Assembly: GCA_944388765.1 (NCBI GenBank)
Contig: CALXKA010000001.1
Span: forward strand, 35,871 to 99,870
Direction: 5' to 3'
Source: an uncultured Clostridia bacterium
Lineage (GTDB): Bacteria > Bacillota > Clostridia > TANB77 > CAG-508
DNA length: 64,000 bases
In this document: in pieces, positions 5,785-14,064 of the stretch
Position numbering within the stretch: position 1 is the stretch's first letter
Layout: each line of letters starts with the position of its first letter
Program-made: the position numbers and the translations under genes
Notes under the pieces: model-generated
Seen by the model: the letters and a program-made list of their open reading frames with translations, nothing else
The model's database searches: none
What the model was told of the DNA's origin: nothing

Positions 5785-5850
5785 ATTTTCCTCCTTTCTA
5801 AATTAGGTCTTTTCCTTTTGAATATATATCTGTTTGATTTGTATTTGTTT

Positions 5851-5908
5851 GAATATATGATTAATTGTTCATATATTCATGATATGATTTTATTTCTATT
5901 TTGTCAAT
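5851..5908 (-). promoter_or_regulatory. Putative cad promoter (-35 TTGACA, -10 TATCAT on minus strand) with perfect 10-bp inverted repeat operator
   Basis: Minus strand TTGACA (plus 5903..5908), 18-nt spacer, TATCAT (5879..5884). Inverted repeat GAATATATGA-n8-TCATATATTC at 5851..5878 covers the predicted transcription start, as expected for an ArsR-family operator. Confidence 0.5.
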
Positions 5909-5945
5909 AGTTTTTCAAAAAATTATTACAAATGTTTTTAAATAA

Positions 5946-5981
5946 TAAAAAAGGCCTGCTTTATTTAGCAAACCTTTTTTA
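5946..5981 (-). terminator. Rho-independent terminator downstream of the KAP NTPase gene
   Basis: Minus-strand RNA folds AAAAAAGGUUUGC/GCAGGCCUUUUUU using G-U wobble pairs, followed by UUUUUUAUU. The plus-strand version would contain C-A mismatches, so it is strand-specific. Confidence 0.5.
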
Positions 5982-6038
5982 TTATCCTTCTTCTTCTACT
6001 TCAAATTGTGTTGTGCATCTTTGAGGGAAGGAAATTTA

Positions 6039-7469
6039 TTATATAATATTATTTATTTCATTTATCATATTATATACTTTTTTGTCATTATATGTTCCAT
6101 TTTCAAAAAGTGTATCTAAAAAATTAGTATTACTCATAATAAATTCAATAAAATTCTTACAAATAGAATCATCAAATAATCCAAGCCAATTATAATATTC
6201 TATAAATGCTCCTCCTTCAAGGTATTTAGCTGCTTTTAACTCTTTTATTGTTAATTTATATGAAGAAAACCTTACTAATAATTTAAATACTTCATATTTT
6301 TTTCCATTATTATAATTTAAATTACACTCCTTTTTATTATATTGCTCAAATTGATTTTCTAGTTTTCTTCCTGTGTTTCTATCATAATTTATTAATAATA
6401 TTTTATTATAAATTTTTTCCTTATTTTCTAATAATAAGTATTTATATTCGTCATTATGAAAAATGTGTATAATTATAAAATACAATACTAAAATAATATT
6501 ATATATATTACATAAGTTAATATCTTTTCTTATTAAATATTCTTTTATTGAAATATATTTTCTTAGCACTTTCTTTATATGTCTAGAATTGCTAAAAGCA
6601 ATACTAGACAAAAAATCTACAATTTTTTTCGCATCCTCATGGCTAATTTTCATAATCTTAACAATGCTGTCTTCAAAATTTTCTACATTTATATTATTGC
6701 TTATAATAAAATTAATAGGAAATATTTTTTCTAAATATTCATCTGCTTTGTTAAAATCATTATTATATTTATTTTGCAATGCTAAAGTAACAGCTTTTTT
6801 ATCTATTCCAATTATAAATATAATATTTTTATTTACAGATAATAGTAATTTTATAGAAGATATTAAATTAATAATATTTTCTGATTCACATCTATCCAAA
6901 TCATCTAAAAATATAACTAATTTTTTGTTATTAAAAGTCATTTTACTATATTCTTCTTCGAATTCATTTATTTTTTCCCACAAGCATTTATTATCTTCTA
7001 TCTTTTTTACTCTTTCTTCATCTAATTTTTGCACCTCATCTATAGCCTCTCCTGGCTTTATATTTATTATTCCTAAATTAATGTCTATTCCTTTTGCCAT
7101 ACTTTTTAATATACTATATCCTGTTTCTAGTATATTTTTTCCATTTTCCTTAAGCCTATTAATTTTCTTATTTTTAGTCATGAATTTTAACAATGAATAT
7201 GGTAAATTATCATCTTTTTCATATTTCCAAGTATCAAACCATACTGTTTCAAATTCATTTTTAGGCAAGTTACTTTCTATTGTTTTCATTAAACAACTTT
7301 TACCACTTCCCCATACCCCATATATTGCAATTAAATTATTTTTTTCTAATAATTTTTTATTATTTTCTAATTGTAAAAAATTACAAATTGCCATAGCTTT
7401 ATCATAAGTTCCAAACATATCATTTTCCCTATTTAATACTTTTATTTCTTCAATTAAACTTTCCTCCAT
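6039..7469 (-). CDS. KAP-family P-loop NTPase
   Basis: 476 aa. Walker A GVWGSGKS, Walker B/KAP signature VIFLDDLDRC. One hydrophobic segment after the NTPase core. More AT-rich than its neighbours. Confidence 0.75.
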   Translation of the reverse strand: MEESLIEEIKVLNRENDMFGTYDKAMAICNFLQLENNKKLLEKNNLIAIYGVWGSGKSCLMKTIESNLPKNEFETVWFDTWKYEKDDNLPYSLLKFMTKNKKINRLKENGKNILETGYSILKSMAKGIDINLGIINIKPGEAIDEVQKLDEERVKKIEDNKCLWEKINEFEEEYSKMTFNNKKLVIFLDDLDRCESENIINLISSIKLLLSVNKNIIFIIGIDKKAVTLALQNKYNNDFNKADEYLEKIFPINFIISNNINVENFEDSIVKIMKISHEDAKKIVDFLSSIAFSNSRHIKKVLRKYISIKEYLIRKDINLCNIYNIILVLYFIIIHIFHNDEYKYLLLENKEKIYNKILLINYDRNTGRKLENQFEQYNKKECNLNYNNGKKYEVFKLLVRFSSYKLTIKELKAAKYLEGGAFIEYYNWLGLFDDSICKNFIEFIMSNTNFLDTLFENGTYNDKKVYNMINEINNII

Positions 7470-7489
7470 TTACTTTCTCCTTTTTCATT

Positions 7490-8290
7490 TTATTTTAATA
7501 ATTTTGTTTCACTATCCTTTGTTAATATTTTCATTTGTGATATTGCTATTTGATTTAATTTATATAATCTGTCAGATTGTTGCATTCCTTCATTTATAAA
7601 TATTGAATTTGTATTTTCTAAATTTGCTAAACATATTAATTCATTTATACTTGCATAATCTCTTATATTCCCTTTTTTATTTGGATTCTTTTCTCTCCAT
7701 TCTTTTGCTGTCATACCAAATAATGCCATATTTAATACGTCAGCTTCTTCTGCGTATACTAGATTTACTTGCTTGCTAGTTAATTCTTTAGGTATTAAAT
7801 TATTTTTTATTGCATCCGTGTGTATTCTATAGTTAACTTTTGCTAAATCTCTCTTTGCATTCCATCCTACTTCTTTTTGTTCTTCTTGTTTTAATCTTTC
7901 AAATTCTTTAATTAAATATATTTTGAATTTTGGGCTAATCCACATTCCAAACTCAAAGGCTATATCCTTATGTGCATAAGTTCCTCCATATCTTCCTGTT
8001 TTTGCCACTATTCCAATTGCATTTGTTTTATTTGACCACTCTTTAACACTTATTTTGTAACTATTTAAACCTGCTTGACTTTTAATTATGGCGAATTCGC
8101 CATAATTAAAATTAGGATTATGCAATTCTTCCCATATTCCTAAAAATTCAATTGTATTTCTATTTCTCAACCAATCCGAAATAAAGAATTCACCATCCTT
8201 TGATTTTAGCATATCTGTCAAAGATATGTAATCTTCATTACCTTCGTTATAATAGTTTATTCTTGTATCTAATACTTCGAAATTTTTCAT
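7490..8290 (-). CDS. KilA-N domain protein (phage antirepressor-like)
   Basis: 266 aa. The N-terminal region resembles KilA-N/Bro-N DNA-binding domains seen in prophage antirepressors. Has its own promoter containing a Cheo box. Confidence 0.55.
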   Translation of the reverse strand: MKNFEVLDTRINYYNEGNEDYISLTDMLKSKDGEFFISDWLRNRNTIEFLGIWEELHNPNFNYGEFAIIKSQAGLNSYKISVKEWSNKTNAIGIVAKTGRYGGTYAHKDIAFEFGMWISPKFKIYLIKEFERLKQEEQKEVGWNAKRDLAKVNYRIHTDAIKNNLIPKELTSKQVNLVYAEEADVLNMALFGMTAKEWREKNPNKKGNIRDYASINELICLANLENTNSIFINEGMQQSDRLYKLNQIAISQMKILTKDSETKLLK

Positions 8291-8310
8291 AATATCACAT
8301 CCTTTTGCTA

Positions 8311-8339
8311 ATTTTATCGAACATATGTTTTATTGTCAA
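8311..8339 (-). promoter_or_regulatory. Promoter of the KilA-N gene with embedded LexA (Cheo) box
   Basis: Minus strand -35 TTGACA (plus 8334..8339) and -10 TAAAAT (plus 8311..8316). The spacer holds CGAACATATGTTTT (8318..8331), matching 12 of 14 positions of the Gram-positive SOS box CGAACRNRYGTTCG. Confidence 0.5.
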
Positions 8340-8377
8340 TAGAATATTTTTCTTTTTTATAAAAATAAAGCATATGA

Positions 8378-8566
8378 TCATAAATCATCATATACTTTAT
8401 TTTCTTTCTTAACTTCTATTTCAAAATCTTTAAGTGGCAAAGCCCACTTAACATTAAATTTTCTACCATTTATAATATTTTTCATTTGGTCTTTGTGTTT
8501 CGTGGAGATATTCTCAAAATGCTCTTTCTCATATGCTACAAAATATTCTACTTTTTCATCCATCAA
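8378..8566 (-). CDS. Hypothetical small protein (62 aa)
   Basis: The ATG overlaps the stop of the upstream ABC gene (ATGA), suggesting translational coupling. No recognisable domain. Confidence 0.35.
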   Translation of the reverse strand: MMDEKVEYFVAYEKEHFENISTKHKDQMKNIINGRKFNVKWALPLKDFEIEVKKENKVYDDL

Positions 8567-10384
8567 AGCTCGTCGAATTGACTATTATATAAATCTGCAT
8601 AAAATCCATTCTTTTCAAGTAATTTTTCATGAGTACCTTGTTCAACAATATCTCCATGGTTCATGACCAATATTAAATCTGCATTTTTTATTGTTGATAA
8701 TCTATGTGCAATTATAAAACTAGTTCTTCCTTTCATTAAATTATCCATAGCTGATTGTATTTGTATTTCAGTTCTTGTATCTATTGAACTTGTTGCTTCA
8801 TCTAATATTAATATTTTTGGATCTGCCAAAATTACTCTTGCAATAGTTAATAACTGTTTTTGTCCAGCTGATATATTAGTTGATTCTTCATTTATCAGTG
8901 AATGGTATCCATTTGGAAGTGTTTTGATAAAATGGTGTACATGTGCTGCCTTTGCTGCTTCTACTACTTCTGTATCTGTTGCGTCTTCTTTGCTATATTT
9001 AATATTATCTTTTACTGTTCCTCCAAATAGCCATGTATCTTGTAAAACCATACCAAACATTTTACGAAGCTCACCTCTATCAAAATCTTTTACGTTGTGA
9101 CCATCAACATCGATTTCTCCATCGTTTACATCATAAAATCTCATTAACAGTTTTACCATTGTTGTTTTTCCTGCACCTGTTGGTCCTACTATTGCTATTT
9201 TTTGTCCTTCTTTTACATCTGCATTAAAATCATTAATTATCATCTTATTTTCATCATATCCAAATTTAACATGTTTGAATTCTACATTTCCCTCTAATTT
9301 TGATGTATCTATGTTTCCTTTTGCTGTAATTACTTCTTCTTTTTCTTCTAAGAATTCAAATATTCTTTCTGCTGCTGCAACCATTGATTGTAGCATACTT
9401 GATATTTGTGCAATTTGGTTTATTGGTTGTGTAAATTGTTTATTATATTGTATAAAACTTTGTATATTACCTACTGTAATCGTACCATTTATTGCTAAAT
9501 ATCCACCTGCAACGGCAACTCCTACATATCCAATATTTGATATAAAATTTACAACTGGATGCATTAGTCCTGATAAAAATTGTGATTTCCATGCAGATTT
9601 ATATAACTCATTATTTGCTTTTTCAAAATCTTTGGTTACTTTTTCTTCTGCATTAAATACTTTTACAATATTTAATCCTCCATAGATTTCTTCTACTTGA
9701 CCATTTACATGTCCTAAATAATCTTGTTGTTTTACGAAATATTTTTGTGATCTTCCTACAATCATTTTCACTAATATTCCTGCAATTGGTAATATGACTA
9801 ATGATATTAATGTCATTTGCCAACTTATTGATAACATCATTACTAAAATTCCAATAATTGTACAAATAGATGTTATTATTTGAGTAATACTTTGATTTAA
9901 GTTCATGCTCAATGTATCAATGTCATTTGTTATTACTGATAGAACTTCTCCATTAGTTTTTTTATCAAAGTACTTCATAGGAAGTTTATTTATTTTTATA
10001 GCTATGTCATTTCTTAACTTATATGTGATTTTTTGTGTTACAGTAGTCATTGTAAATCCTTGAACGAAGGAAAATAATGCACTAATTATATATAATACAA
10101 TTAGAGTTAATGCAATCCCGTCCGACTTTTCCAAAATCTATTCCTGAACCACCTGATAATTTACTCATTAGTCCGTTAAAAATTTCTGTTGTTGCGTTAC
10201 CTAAAATCTTTGGTCCAACAATTGTAAAAATTGTACTTCCTATTGCAAACAATATTACTATAATTATCGCTATTTTATATTTAGCTAAATATGACTTTAT
10301 TAACTTTTTAGTGGTTTTCTTAAAATCTTTTGGCTTTTCTGTTGTTTGACCTCTTCTCATAGGTCCTCCCATTGGTCCTGGCAT
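8563..10384 (-). pseudogene. ABC exporter (fused TMD-NBD, MsbA/LmrC-like), interrupted by a +1 frameshift near 10115-10125
   Basis: ORFs 10082..10384 (N-terminus ...GIDFGKVGR) and 8563..10134 (IALTLIVLY...TMD...NBD) form a single exporter if one G/C is removed from the minus-strand CGGACGGG run (plus ATCCCGTCCG). Confidence 0.8.
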
Positions 10385-12652
10385 TTATTTTCCTCCTTTC
10401 TCGCCTAATTCTTCTTCTGATAATTGTGATAAGGCTATTTGTCTATATGTTTCGTTATTTTTCATTAGTTCTTCGTGTGTACCCATTCCTACCATTTTAC
10501 CTTCTTCAAGAACTATTATTTTATCTGCATTTAGAATTGTACTTATTCTTTGTGCTACGATTATGACTGTTTTATTCTTTGTTCTTGTTGATAATGCTTC
10601 TCTTAATTTGCTATCTGTTTTAAAATCTAATGCAGAGAAGCTATCATCAAATACAAATATTTCTGGATCTTTTGCAATAGCTCTTGCGATTGATAAACGT
10701 TGTTTTTGCCCTCCTGATACATTTCCGCCACCTTGTGCAATTGGGTCTTGATATTTCTTTTCTTTACCTTCAATAAATTCTGTTGCTTGTGCAATTTCTG
10801 CTGCCATTATCATTTGATCGTCTGACATATTTTCATCAGAATATTTGATATTTGACTCTATTGTTCCTGAAAATAATATTCCCTTTTGTGGTACAAAACC
10901 TATAATATCTCTTAAATCTTTTTGAGATACATCTTTTACATTTACACCATCAATACATAATTCTCCACCTGTTACATCATAAAATCTTGGTATTAAATTT
11001 ACTACTGTTGATTTTCCACTTCCTGTACTACCAATAATTGCTGTTGTTTTTCCTGGTTCTGCTGTAAAGTTAATATCTTCTAATATTTCTGTGTCTGCAT
11101 CTGGATATCTAAATGATACATTTTTGAACTCAACTAATCCCTTCTTGTCTGGATCAAAATTCTTTGTTTCTTTTTTATCTTTAATACTTGGTTCTTTTTC
11201 TATAACTTCATTTATACGTCTTGCAGAAACTGCTGCTCTTGGAAGCATAATTGAAATCATTGATATCATTAAAAATGCCATTACAATTTGCATTGTATAT
11301 TGAATAAATGCCATCATATCTCCAACTTGCATTACACCTTGGTCAACATTATGACCTCCAACCCATACTATTAATACCATTATTGAATTCATGATGAACA
11401 TTAAAAGTGGCATCATCATTGACATTGCTCTATTTACAAATATGTTTGTTTTCATTAAATCTTTATTTGCATTATCAAATCTAGCTTCTTCTTTCTTTTC
11501 TTTATTGAATGCTCTAATTACAGGTATACCTGTTAGAATTTCTCTTGAAACTTCATTTAATTTATCTACTAAATCTTGTAATTTCCTAAACCTTGGCATT
11601 GCTACTGCAAATAATGTTCCTACAATAAATAATATCGCAAGTATCGCAATTCCTATAATCCAGGCCATTGAGTTATCTGTACCTGTAATGACTTTTACAA
11701 ATCCTCCTATACCAATAATTGGTGCATATACAACTACTCTAAATAGTATTGCGATTAATTGTTGAATTTGTTGAATATCATTAGTGCTACGAGTAATTAA
11801 TGATGCTGTTGAAAATTCATTTAATTCTGCATTTGAAAATTTAATAACTTTTTTGAACACTTTGTCTCTTAATGTTTTTCCTAGTTTAGCTGCTACTTTT
11901 GATGATAAGAACATTATTGAAACAGCTGAAATCATACTTATAAGTGCTACACCTAACATTTGTAATCCAGACATAAAGATATAATCATTTTGAATTTTAT
12001 CTGTATCTACTCCTAAATTTTTATAAACTTGTTTTACTGATCCAACAGCTGCTTGTTCTTTTATCGAATCACTCATACTTTCTATTTGTTTTGTAGCTTC
12101 ATTAAGTATTTGATTCATTTGTTCTTCTGGCATTTGTGAAATTATTTCTAAAAGTGACATATTTTCTAAATATGTTTTTTGTTGTTCTGGAACATTTAAT
12201 AATATTTGTTCTTTTAAACTATTTGCTGTCTCTTCGTTTGTTATTGTTGTCATCTCTATAATTGGACCAGCTATAAGTCCTTCTAGATTTGTTTTCTCCT
12301 CTTCTTCTAATTCATTCAAAACATAGATATTTTTGTTTTCTACATTATAATCTTTTCCTAAATATTTATTAATTACTTTTTCTTGATGTTTATCTGGTTT
12401 TGAACCTACTAATGTATAATTATTTAAAATTTCTTTATCTTGTTCTGTAAATAATAAAAGTGTATCCATATTATCTTTTGATATAATATCTGGTGCTGGG
12501 CTTTCTATACCTCCTGATTGTATACCTTCATTTACAATTTTAGATGTATAATCTGGTAATGCTAGGTCTGTTGCTGCTTGAATACAAAGTAATATTACAA
12601 TTGCTATTACAGAACCTAGTGATTTTTTTAGATTTTTTAATACTTTTAGCAT
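10385..12652 (-). CDS. ABC exporter (fused TMD-NBD) with a roughly 180-aa extracytoplasmic insertion between TM1 and TM2
   Basis: 755 aa. Walker A GSTGSGKST, signature SGGQKQR, Walker B FVFDDSFSALD. Long hydrophilic segment from about residue 30 to 215 after the first TM helix. Partner of the downstream exporter in a heterodimeric arrangement. Confidence 0.85.
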   Translation of the reverse strand: MLKVLKNLKKSLGSVIAIVILLCIQAATDLALPDYTSKIVNEGIQSGGIESPAPDIISKDNMDTLLLFTEQDKEILNNYTLVGSKPDKHQEKVINKYLGKDYNVENKNIYVLNELEEEEKTNLEGLIAGPIIEMTTITNEETANSLKEQILLNVPEQQKTYLENMSLLEIISQMPEEQMNQILNEATKQIESMSDSIKEQAAVGSVKQVYKNLGVDTDKIQNDYIFMSGLQMLGVALISMISAVSIMFLSSKVAAKLGKTLRDKVFKKVIKFSNAELNEFSTASLITRSTNDIQQIQQLIAILFRVVVYAPIIGIGGFVKVITGTDNSMAWIIGIAILAILFIVGTLFAVAMPRFRKLQDLVDKLNEVSREILTGIPVIRAFNKEKKEEARFDNANKDLMKTNIFVNRAMSMMMPLLMFIMNSIMVLIVWVGGHNVDQGVMQVGDMMAFIQYTMQIVMAFLMISMISIMLPRAAVSARRINEVIEKEPSIKDKKETKNFDPDKKGLVEFKNVSFRYPDADTEILEDINFTAEPGKTTAIIGSTGSGKSTVVNLIPRFYDVTGGELCIDGVNVKDVSQKDLRDIIGFVPQKGILFSGTIESNIKYSDENMSDDQMIMAAEIAQATEFIEGKEKKYQDPIAQGGGNVSGGQKQRLSIARAIAKDPEIFVFDDSFSALDFKTDSKLREALSTRTKNKTVIIVAQRISTILNADKIIVLEEGKMVGMGTHEELMKNNETYRQIALSQLSEEELGEKGGK

Positions 12653-13584: not shown

Positions 13585-14064
13585 TTAATTTATTTTGACA
13601 AAACTGTCTCCAATCTCATCTCTCCATTTTTCTAAACTATCTATTCTAACATTTTGAAAATTCATTCTTGCTTTTTGAGTTTCTATTTCTCTTTTCAATA
13701 GAATATATTCTTTATTACATTTTAATTGATTTTCTAATATTTTATCATATCCGCTATCTATGTATTTTTCCATGTAATCAAATTGTTTAGTGATACTTTT
13801 GTCTATTGTATTTAAAATTTCAAATAACTCTTTTCTATCCTTTTTTCTTTGATTATTACTTCGATTCCACTTTCTATCATTTTCTTTCCAACGTTTTTCA
13901 TTTTGTTCCCATCTTCTATCGTTTTCTTCCCAGCGTTTTTCGTTCTGCTCCCATCTTTTATTATTTTCTTCCCAACGTTTTTCGTTCTCTTCCCATTTTC
14001 TGCTATTTTCTTTTCTAAAATCTCTCAATTCTGTTAAAATCGTTTTTGCTAGTACATCTTCCAT
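13585..14064 (-). CDS. Hypothetical protein with seven tandem heptad repeats (K/N)RWE(E/Q)N(E/D)
   Basis: 159 aa. Residues about 20-70 read RWEENEKRWEENNKRWEQNEKRWEENDRRWEQNEKRWKENDRKW. The DNA carries matching 21-nt direct repeats. Confidence 0.6.
   Translation of the reverse strand: MEDVLAKTILTELRDFRKENSRKWEENEKRWEENNKRWEQNEKRWEENDRRWEQNEKRWKENDRKWNRSNNQRKKDRKELFEILNTIDKSITKQFDYMEKYIDSGYDKILENQLKCNKEYILLKREIETQKARMNFQNVRIDSLEKWRDEIGDSFVKIN
13857..14010. repeat. About seven tandem 21-nt repeats inside the RWEEN-repeat gene
   Basis: Repeated TTCCCA(A/G)CGTTTTTC(A/G)TTCT-like units visible on the plus strand. Confidence 0.6.

Follow-up and report, generated by a model that had tools for sequence, protein, structure and literature searches.

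A KilA-N gene and a KAP NTPase gene juxtaposed in a cargo slot of uncultured gut Clostridia

We analysed a 64,000-nucleotide stretch of DNA (the window) from an uncultured Clostridia bacterium (contig CALXKA010000001.1 of assembly GCA_944388765.1), in which two adjacent genes encode a KilA-N protein and a KAP-family P-loop NTPase (referred to as KAP). We lean, if only slightly, towards the view that these are two independent, independently mobile defence candidates that became neighbours at a hotspot for cargo in one Clostridia lineage, where they share a transcript. Their pairing amounts to a single evolutionary juxtaposition, found in one clade and at one chromosomal site, and the conserved co-occurrence in independent lineages that would mark a two-gene system was not observed. 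Inside the KilA-N gene we also found a conserved, covarying palindrome.

Results

Co-occurrence of the two genes in relatives

The two genes had been called in an earlier reading of the same DNA (the original prediction), and the call was confirmed: the KilA-N gene (7490-8290, 266 amino acids) and the KAP gene (6039-7469, 476 amino acids) are the first and second of two open reading frames (ORFs) on the minus strand. They lie, as had been stated, between a cad-type operon (ArsR/CadC-HMA-P-type ATPase) on one side and an ABC exporter operon on the other. The GC content of the window is about 25% (mean 25.2%), and its closest public relatives are metagenome-assembled genomes of the type 'uncultured Clostridia bacterium' from animal and human gut samples.

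Relatives of KAP were collected by a scan of one genome per species, which gave 73 loci, and from contigs retrieved by exact-protein look-ups; relatives of the KilA-N gene came from metagenomes and IMG/VR and comprised 123 loci, each checked within 6 kb. Loci are denoted by L numbers. Wherever KAP was at least 83% identical to that of the window and the contig reached upstream of it, a KilA-N gene was present directly upstream, and where such contigs extended further, ABC exporter genes stood directly upstream of the pair. The downstream flanks of the paired loci differed: a cad-type operon in the window, cupin, methyltransferase and MerR genes in L005, a NUDIX gene in L228, and genes for a Zn-ribbon protein and a nitroreductase in L224.

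Outside this group the two genes were found apart. None of 16 loci with a more distant KAP (36-66% identity, including L013-L024, L027, L033 and L227) had a KilA-N gene within 10 kb. At one of them (L227) a 66%-identical KAP gene directly follows an ABC exporter gene after a 58-nt gap, with no KilA-N gene, and at the other 15 the identity of KAP was 36-62%. None of the 123 KilA-N loci had a KAP relative within 6 kb. Conservation of the pair as a unit was thus seen in relatives with a KAP at least 83% identical and nowhere else, and the idea that the pairing is a functional unit did not survive the comparison outside one clade, where the genes occur independently. These data do not establish the pair as a two-gene system.

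Those of the distant KAP genes whose surroundings were examined belong to typical defence islands, with neighbours that include AbiLi/AbiLii, an NgoPII-type restriction-modification (RM) system, an SLFN-type helicase (PDC-S41/AbiO-like) and PDC-S32 (AbiJ-like). PDC names refer to 145 phage defence candidates identified through 'guilt by embedding' in BREX, DISARM and type I RM loci (Payne et al., bioRxiv 10.1101/2024.01.29.577857), and we took the 'S' in these names to mean a single-gene candidate. A 1306-amino acid ORF near the KAP gene of L023 has an N-terminus that appeared Cas9-like by eye only.

A slot for exchangeable cargo

The original prediction had described the pair as an accessory insertion, and comparison with relatives provided its borders, at about 5985 and about 8359. 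At position 8359, on the left, homology to strains of the L205 type, which carry different cargo, stops just past the hairpin of the ABC exporter/61-amino acid ORF operon, and at 5982-5997, on the right, alignments to relatives with other downstream genes end. Because the homology of relatives breaks at both borders, the inserted block of approximately 2.4 kb (about 5985-8359) contains exactly two genes, together with a promoter-like site and a terminator-like hairpin and nothing else.

The same flanks were found around different cargo. In L224, where KAP is 83% identical, the order of genes is TetR, ABC, ABC, KilA-N, KAP, a 150-amino acid ORF, Zn-ribbon and nitroreductase. This locus and L205-L213 share TetR, a 54-amino acid ORF and two ABC exporter genes on one side, and the 150-amino acid ORF, Zn-ribbon protein, nitroreductase and acetyltransferase on the other. 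In L205-L213 the slot (locus coordinates 8372-12034) is occupied by three different genes, which encode an Aga_REase/SMEK_N-nSTAND3-like protein (327 amino acids, possibly from a truncated gene), a 453-amino acid protein that matched no family, and a nuclease of the DUF1016/YhcG type (PDC-S02, E = 1e-119). Since the same flanks hold different cargo in L224 and in L205-L213, the slot 3' of the conserved ABC exporter operon is an exchange point for defence-type cargo. The original prediction had proposed to check whether the pair is missing from the same site in related strains; L205-L213 carry other cargo there, and L227 carries KAP alone.

Traces of recombination were seen at the edge of the slot and within the cassette. 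DNA identity between the window and L205 is about 0.77 at first but climbs to 0.91 over the 400 nt that lead up to the slot, and the 61-amino acid ORF is 100% identical in the window and L205-L213, though the adjoining ABC DNA is only about 77% identical. This rise suggests a recombination tract, and would fit an exchange of cargo through homologous recombination in the flank. Divergence in the cassette was discordant, with KilA-N 100% identical at loci where KAP was 87-90% identical (L005 and L006). A mosaic KilA-N allele is present in L009 and L011 (9170-9979), in which the 5' half (to about position 7830 of the window) is 52-77% identical to the window in DNA, and the 3' half together with KAP is 88-98% identical (KAP itself being 91% identical to that of the window). 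The KilA-N domain is encoded in the swapped 5' half, and the near-palindrome there is a different one.

No credible att-like direct repeats were found at the block borders, where the direct repeats present were short chance pairs. A 25-nt inverted repeat (I5), 72% complementary and composed of AT-rich terminator sequence, occurs at both borders and is probably due to chance. The block had been described as an AT-rich islet, and this is true of KAP, whose GC content of 20.3% falls in the lowest 2.4% of windows of the same size; KilA-N, at 26.7%, lies above the mean of the window, and the whole block, at 22.9%, is at the 15th percentile.

Transcription of the cassette

The two ORFs are separated by a 20-nt spacer (7470-7489, minus strand) in which the sole signal is the ribosome-binding site of KAP, AAAGGAGAAAG, read from the sequence. 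Identical spacing was seen in L001, L005, L006, L224 and L228. Upstream of KilA-N, inside the inserted block, is a sigma-70-type promoter-like site, TTGACA-17-TAAAAT (8339..8311, minus strand, 11/12 matches), which is the only strong one on the minus strand of the islet; the remaining promoter-like sites are at background level (35 seen, compared with 30.6 expected in shuffled sequence). No terminator-like site was found between KilA-N and KAP. A hairpin followed by a T-run (I7; 5942-5985, minus strand; 19-nt arms, 89% complementary) lies 3' of KAP at the right-hand border, and a second hairpin at the left-hand border (I6; 8362-8403, minus strand; 20-nt arms, 90% complementary) ends the upstream ABC exporter/61-amino acid ORF operon and belongs to the flank, not to the cargo.

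Because of the 20-nt gap, the one promoter-like site and the single hairpin and T-run after KAP, KilA-N and KAP are predicted to form one bicistronic operon, whose transcription would be driven from the site at 8339..8311. A separate promoter and terminator for each gene, as proposed originally, was not confirmed.

The KAP NTPase

The assignment of KAP to its family was upheld in a profile search (Pfam KAP_NTPase, PF07693; 95 bits with a cut-off of 20, E = 6.4e-27, residues 45-261). Both motifs that had been read from the translation are present and agree with the family patterns GxxGxGKS and hhhhDDLDR, namely Walker A, GVWGSGKS (residues 51-58; 7296-7319, minus strand), and Walker B, FLDDLDRC (residues 187-194; 6888-6911, minus strand). 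In 20 KAP homologues of 36-88% identity, residues G51, W53, G54, G56, K57 and S58 of the former and all of the latter were invariant. KAP also matched PDC-S20 in PADLOC (E = 9.6e-29, residues 41-404 on profile positions 37-401 of 464), a profile without a curated cut-off; the match is only moderate and would make this KAP a divergent relative of PDC-S20.

An AlphaFold2 model of KAP (pLDDT 82, pTM 0.76) comprised a P-loop core, a helical lid and, at the C-terminus, a compact alpha/beta domain. In their founding description of 2004, Aravind and colleagues are said to have described transmembrane helices inserted within the NTPase domain. In the present KAP neither Kyte-Doolittle hydropathy nor the model revealed a hydrophobic window between Walker A and Walker B, and the insert at the position of the transmembrane helices of classical KAP proteins (residues 127-158) is polar and modelled with low confidence. 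The only hydrophobic stretch (residues 319-337, Kyte-Doolittle 2.23) comes after the core, and in the model it forms a helix of pLDDT >90. A membrane-associated KAP, as suggested in the original prediction, is not supported, as no transmembrane insert was found between the Walker motifs, and from the hydropathy and the model we regard KAP as probably soluble.

Sequence searches of KAP and KilA-N against the PDB gave no match. When the KAP model was compared with solved structures using Foldseek, the top matches were the heptameric RdrA rings of RADAR (PDB 8hr8 and 8fnt; E = 2e-5 to 1e-4, probability 1.0), followed by archaeal PF01637 ATPases, ORC/Cdc6 and BrxC, with low TM-scores of 0.3-0.43. 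The likeness to RdrA, as the best structural match, points to a ring-shaped oligomer, but TM-scores to RdrA were 0.33-0.43 at 10-14% identity, RdrA is about 800-850 amino acids long, and no RdrB adenosine deaminase partner is present here. The modelled fold suggests that KAP could be a ring-forming AAA+/STAND-like switch, with no membership in the matched systems implied.

The C-terminal alpha/beta domain (residues 340-476; 6042-6452, minus strand; pLDDT >90) had no Pfam match and is family-specific. Among 1.84 billion representatives, 12 relatives of this domain were detected at E<=1e-3, of which 2 were full-length KAP homologues and the others short unclassified sequences. It is also the fastest-evolving part of the protein, as 41% of its sites vary among close KAP relatives versus 23% in residues 1-300, with a peak at residues 401-425. 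Such variability is as would be expected for a specificity or effector module. A search of 2.9 million viral contigs in IMG/VR found no relatives of KAP, and 50,697 phage genomes yielded one weak match.

Single-gene KAP proteins have recently been characterised: a KAP of E. faecalis (EF_KAP) and three KAPs from human gut metagenomes each protected against phage, protection in E. faecalis needed Walker B and an uncharacterised C-terminal region, and it did not behave as abortive infection (PLoS Biol 2026, PMC13552941). KAP of the window resembles these proteins in its NTPase core joined to a C-terminal region without a known domain, its intact Walker motifs, its origin in gut Firmicutes, and the single-gene context of most of its relatives. 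It differs in that EF_KAP was modelled with two transmembrane helices (PMC13552941), whereas none is found between the Walker motifs here, and in its predicted co-transcription with a KilA-N gene, the validated KAPs being single genes.

The KAP NTPase core is shared with PifA of plasmid F, which mediates T7 exclusion, and with QatA (PADLOC, E = 3e-17 and 5e-19, respectively). Membership in either system was rejected. Only residues 10-258 of KAP align to the 720-position PifA profile, PifA models being about 720 amino acids long; for QatA, the NCBIfam score was 70.7 bits with a cut-off of 600, and the neighbours of KAP are the KilA-N gene and an ArsR/CadC-type regulator, with no adjacent QatB, QatC or QatD.

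A gene of about 97 amino acids (MNNLREVNDD..DKKH.IYFDEI..YYRNGF) was observed in convergent orientation just downstream of many distant KAP orthologues, twice in some loci (L013, 11567-11860; L015, 13565-13855 and 18972-19256; L016, 2681-2971; L020; L024, 4283-4585 and 8677-8976; L027, 3687-3980; L033, 11413-11706). It was rejected as a partner of KAP, as the window has no copy, some loci have several, and no Pfam or PADLOC model matches it.

The KilA-N protein and its genomic settings

The KilA-N assignment also held in a profile search (Pfam KilA-N, PF04383; 85.9 bits with a cut-off of 23.8, E = 2.1e-24). The domain, which takes its name from KilA of phage P1, occupies residues 18-135 and is followed by a conserved helical C-terminal half. 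The protein matched PDC-S22 over its full length (E = 3e-129, residues 3-264 on profile positions 6-272 of 281) and PHROG 2657 (E = 4e-60), which, like PHROG 129, is annotated 'transcriptional regulator'. Profiles for Bro-N and ANT gave no match in the KilA-N protein, and the label 'antirepressor-like' had to be dropped. A structure model built from a shallow alignment had a pLDDT of 44. The family is very large, with at least 8000 candidate clusters at E<=1e-5 (all scored); among the 120 matches listed, clusters were 80-99% identical to the query.

Relatives of the KilA-N gene were found in a range of settings. Some lie in type I RM operons, between hsdM and hsdS or before hsdR, much as the PDCs were themselves defined. 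Others precede a type III Res helicase (ResIII), PDC-S61 or an Avs4-like NACHT protein, the last following its KilA-N relative after a gap of 15 nt in L094, and at 13 loci the relative comes after a DUF1016/PDC-S02 gene. Integrases and CI-type repressors are also among the neighbours. In cultured phages and satellites, the KilA-N gene sits between a CI-type repressor (with an ImmA-like protease) and an integrase, on the strand expressed in the lysogen; these cases, ORF014 of Staphylococcus phage EW and the Streptococcus Javan satellites, are full-length homologues of 48-54% identity. They differ from the gene studied here in standing alone in a lysogeny module, the present gene being chromosomal, outside a prophage, and ahead of a KAP gene. 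No conserved DNA that would define a cassette was found to flank the KilA-N genes, and homology among loci was restricted to the ORF. From these contexts, members of the family are accessory genes, found at any operon position in defence loci or lysogeny modules.

These settings bear on the possibility that the two genes form an obligate defence system, in which KilA-N senses phage or host DNA and activates KAP as the effector, neither working alone. The tight bicistronic arrangement in every relative with a KAP at least 83% identical argues for such coupling, as does the mosaic of L009 and L011, which swaps only the DNA-binding half of KilA-N, keeps its C-terminal half and KAP, and so resembles a specificity swap; KilA-N relatives are, moreover, often tightly trailed by other NTPases or nucleases, the Avs4-like protein of L094 being an example. 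Yet KAP has no KilA-N partner at the very same site in L227 or at 15 other loci, none of the 123 KilA-N loci has a KAP, and a lone KilA-N stands between repressor and integrase in phage EW and the satellites. PADLOC lists PDC-S20 and PDC-S22 as separate single-gene candidates, their joining in one operon not being in the catalogue, and the validated KAP defences are single genes. We consider an obligate pair unlikely.

A palindrome within the KilA-N gene

Codons 61-70 of the KilA-N gene (FNYGEFAIIK) coincide with a perfect 32-bp palindrome, TTTTAATTATGGCGAATTCGCCATAATTAAAA (I14, 8080-8111). Shuffling of the window did not reproduce it in 100 trials, not even with 3 mismatches. In 111 distinct homologous genes, codon identity at unchanged amino acids was 0.98 in the ten palindrome codons as against about 0.5 elsewhere in the gene, and amino-acid conservation at these codons was unexceptional. 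Diverged homologues have an invariant GAATTC centre with arms that differ yet are mutually complementary, for example TTTTAAACCCGTCGAATTCGACGGGTTTAAAA, AAAGGTATCGAATTCGATACCTTT and AATTCCATCGAATTCGATGGAATT, and AAACCCGTCGAATTCGACGGGTTT is an example of a natural variant in the N6 arm. The changes in the arms alter residues as reverse-complement codon pairs (N/I, K/F, P/G and V/D).

Covariation was measured in 92 distinct sequences. Pairing was present in 95.2% of cells, compared with 87.1 +/- 0.4% when columns were shuffled and 35-51% with slid partners. Changes on both sides were seen in 76 cells, compared with 13 +/- 3 in shuffles (0/500 shuffles reached 76), and compensatory change affected 7 of the 14 base pairs. 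The homologues in phage EW and the Javan satellites also retain the internal palindrome through compensatory changes. The frozen synonymous sites, and compensatory changes that alter amino acids, are evidence of selection on the nucleic acid instead of the protein, by which pairing is kept at the cost of the encoded amino acids.

A known structured RNA family was rejected as an explanation, as a search of positions 5800-8600 with Rfam 15 covariance models gave nothing at E<=1 save a chance Thr_leader match elsewhere, and nothing at 8080-8111. The palindrome was likewise rejected as an operator repeated in the promoter, because no second copy exists in the promoter or elsewhere in the window.

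Stand-alone copies were found in viral DNA. An exact 28-mer scan of IMG/VR identified 20 contigs, in 5 of which the palindrome is non-coding, beside terminator hairpins and without a KilA-N ORF (L235, L237, L245, L248 and L252). A degenerate scan of the same collection (TTTAA, N6, CGAATTCG, N6, TTAAA) gave at least 130 sites. Among the matches listed, half are inside ORFs of the family, in a frame consistent with the family protein, and the other half are outside any family ORF, which adds about 60 further IMG/VR loci (L254-L361). In 51 of the 64 stand-alone sites among these matches, 4-6 of the 6 positions in the N6 arms were complementary, the random expectation being 1.5. The general form of the palindrome is about 30 bp: TTTAA, N6, CGAATTCG, N6', TTAAA. 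Tandem doublets, in which the GAATTC centres are spaced 24 nt apart, account for some of the stand-alone sites (L291, L298, L305, L345 and L351) and occur even in GC-rich contigs. The stand-alone copies lie in diverse phage and prophage contigs, often near terminator hairpins. In L356, judged by eye, one appears to abut a tRNA-like 3' end. A 390-amino acid ORF that looked TnpB/IS605 OrfB-like by eye (L245, 10775-11947) lies about 2 kb from a stand-alone palindrome in one contig, and this is probably a coincidence.

The palindrome may be a DNA site to which a dimeric protein binds, and the KilA-N protein itself would be the most economical candidate for that protein. Alternatively, it may form a hairpin in RNA or in single-stranded DNA, or be a site of the recombination type. 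Mismatches showed no clear strand bias that would separate an RNA hairpin from a DNA palindrome (57 G-U and 38 A-C). BLAST of the 32-mer against phage and plasmid collections returned no match, possibly owing to the low-complexity filter. In the literature we searched, neither the palindrome sequence nor a link between KilA-N and a palindrome of this kind was found, and as far as this search reached the element is undescribed. Genes that carry the target of their own product have precedents in parS inside parB and the lambda origin inside gene O. Tentatively, we raise the possibility that KilA-N proteins have their cognate site or hairpin in the palindrome, so that the gene carries its own target and its product acts on phages with matching sites; in the present lineage it may in addition signal to the co-transcribed KAP.

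Could KilA-N instead be the transcriptional regulator of the cassette, controlling KAP, possibly via the palindrome in its own gene? In pifC-pifA of plasmid F, a DNA-binding autoregulator precedes the KAP NTPase PifA. The annotation of PHROG 2657 and PHROG 129, the promoter-proximal position of KilA-N, its strongly conserved and unique palindrome and the NTPase core that KAP shares with PifA are all in keeping with this arrangement. However, members of the family occur at any operon position (between hsdM and hsdS, or directly before an integrase) and do not consistently lead a cargo gene, the promoter and the rest of the window have no second palindrome, an extra site near the gene was present at only 3 of 123 loci, and the DNA around the genes of the family is not conserved. 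A regulatory role of this kind seems to us rather improbable.

The palindrome is relevant also to an explanation outside defence, in which the genes are selfish or maintenance genes of mobile DNA that are hard to lose, for example what is left of a prophage or integrative element, or a module of the addiction type. With its stand-alone phage copies, the palindrome looks like a site that is mobile or serves in replication or recombination; lysogeny modules of prophages and satellites commonly contain KilA-N relatives, and the extreme conservation of KilA-N is unusual for immune genes. Against this, the block consists of two genes only, with no integrase or other recombinase, no phage structural genes and no direct repeats at its ends, KAP is absent from the viral contigs searched and has just the one weak match in phage genomes, sister strains hold other defence candidates in the same slot, and KAP-type proteins are experimentally protective (PMC13552941). 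The prophage remnant of the original prediction is not borne out by these observations, and we give the explanation as a whole little credence.

Flanking genes

The second ABC exporter gene upstream of the cassette is split by a 1-nt insertion at 10082-10134 of the window, into ORFs 10082-10384 and 8563-10134. The gene is intact in L009 and L006 (605-607 amino acids), and the identical split (100 and 495 amino acids) is present in L001, L214 and L219. Because these are independent assemblies, a sequencing error is improbable and the frameshift is likely to be genuine. The 61-amino acid ORF that follows (8378-8563, minus strand) has no family match and overlaps the ABC stop codon (ATGA), which suggests that it is translationally coupled to the ABC gene. 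Beside lexA, a 159-amino acid ORF (13585-14064, minus strand) encodes a run of W-E-(E/Q)-N-(E/D)-(K/R)-R-W repeats, for which the records of the matching contig, L001, list no Pfam match.

Discussion

Taken gene by gene, the suggestion that the cassette is a candidate for defence has gained support. Both proteins match PADLOC models of phage defence candidates, relatives of both are found among RM, AbiL, Avs-like and other candidate defence genes, and single-gene KAP NTPases have been shown to protect (PMC13552941).

By analogy with these validated proteins, KAP would be a soluble and probably ring-forming P-loop NTPase whose private, fast-evolving C-terminal domain recognises or attacks a phage component, and whose binding and hydrolysis of NTP (through K57 of Walker A and D189/D190 of Walker B) may drive a switch that blocks phage replication. 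KilA-N would act separately, as an accessory protein of the PDC-S22 family that binds DNA, or nucleic acid more generally, in a sequence-specific manner. Genes of this family are found inserted in operons of type I RM systems, in defence islands and, in prophages and satellites, in the repressor-integrase module.

Several observations weigh against two independent defence genes. PDC-S20 and PDC-S22 have the status of candidates only. The 20-nt spacing and co-orientation have been kept over several species-level lineages (KAP 83-100% identical), which would also fit a functional couple, and the recombination event in L009 and L011 left the 3' half of KilA-N joined to KAP. The conservation of KilA-N (at least 80% across the listed clusters) is, furthermore, far above that of a typical defence protein in an arms race. 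Co-occurrence of the two genes is effectively one juxtaposition, and neither proves nor disproves coupling within the clade.

The genes of the cassette belong to catalogued candidate families, one of them to a class recently validated, and their pairing is lineage-specific. The pair itself is of small import: the lists of candidates gain a further divergent KAP NTPase without transmembrane helices and a further PDC-S22 gene. The locus documents that, in uncultured gut Clostridia, a clean hotspot for defence cargo lies downstream of the ABC exporter, and may offer a natural allele series of KAP alone, KilA-N with KAP, and nSTAND with PDC-S02 cargo. Of greater use as a lead is the palindrome, since PDC-S22 is a very abundant and highly conserved candidate family: its covariation, its fixed position in the codons and its non-coding copies in phages provide a handle on binding by PDC-S22 proteins or on mRNA or DNA processing. 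If the palindrome were indeed their cognate target, it would explain what PDC-S22 proteins do.

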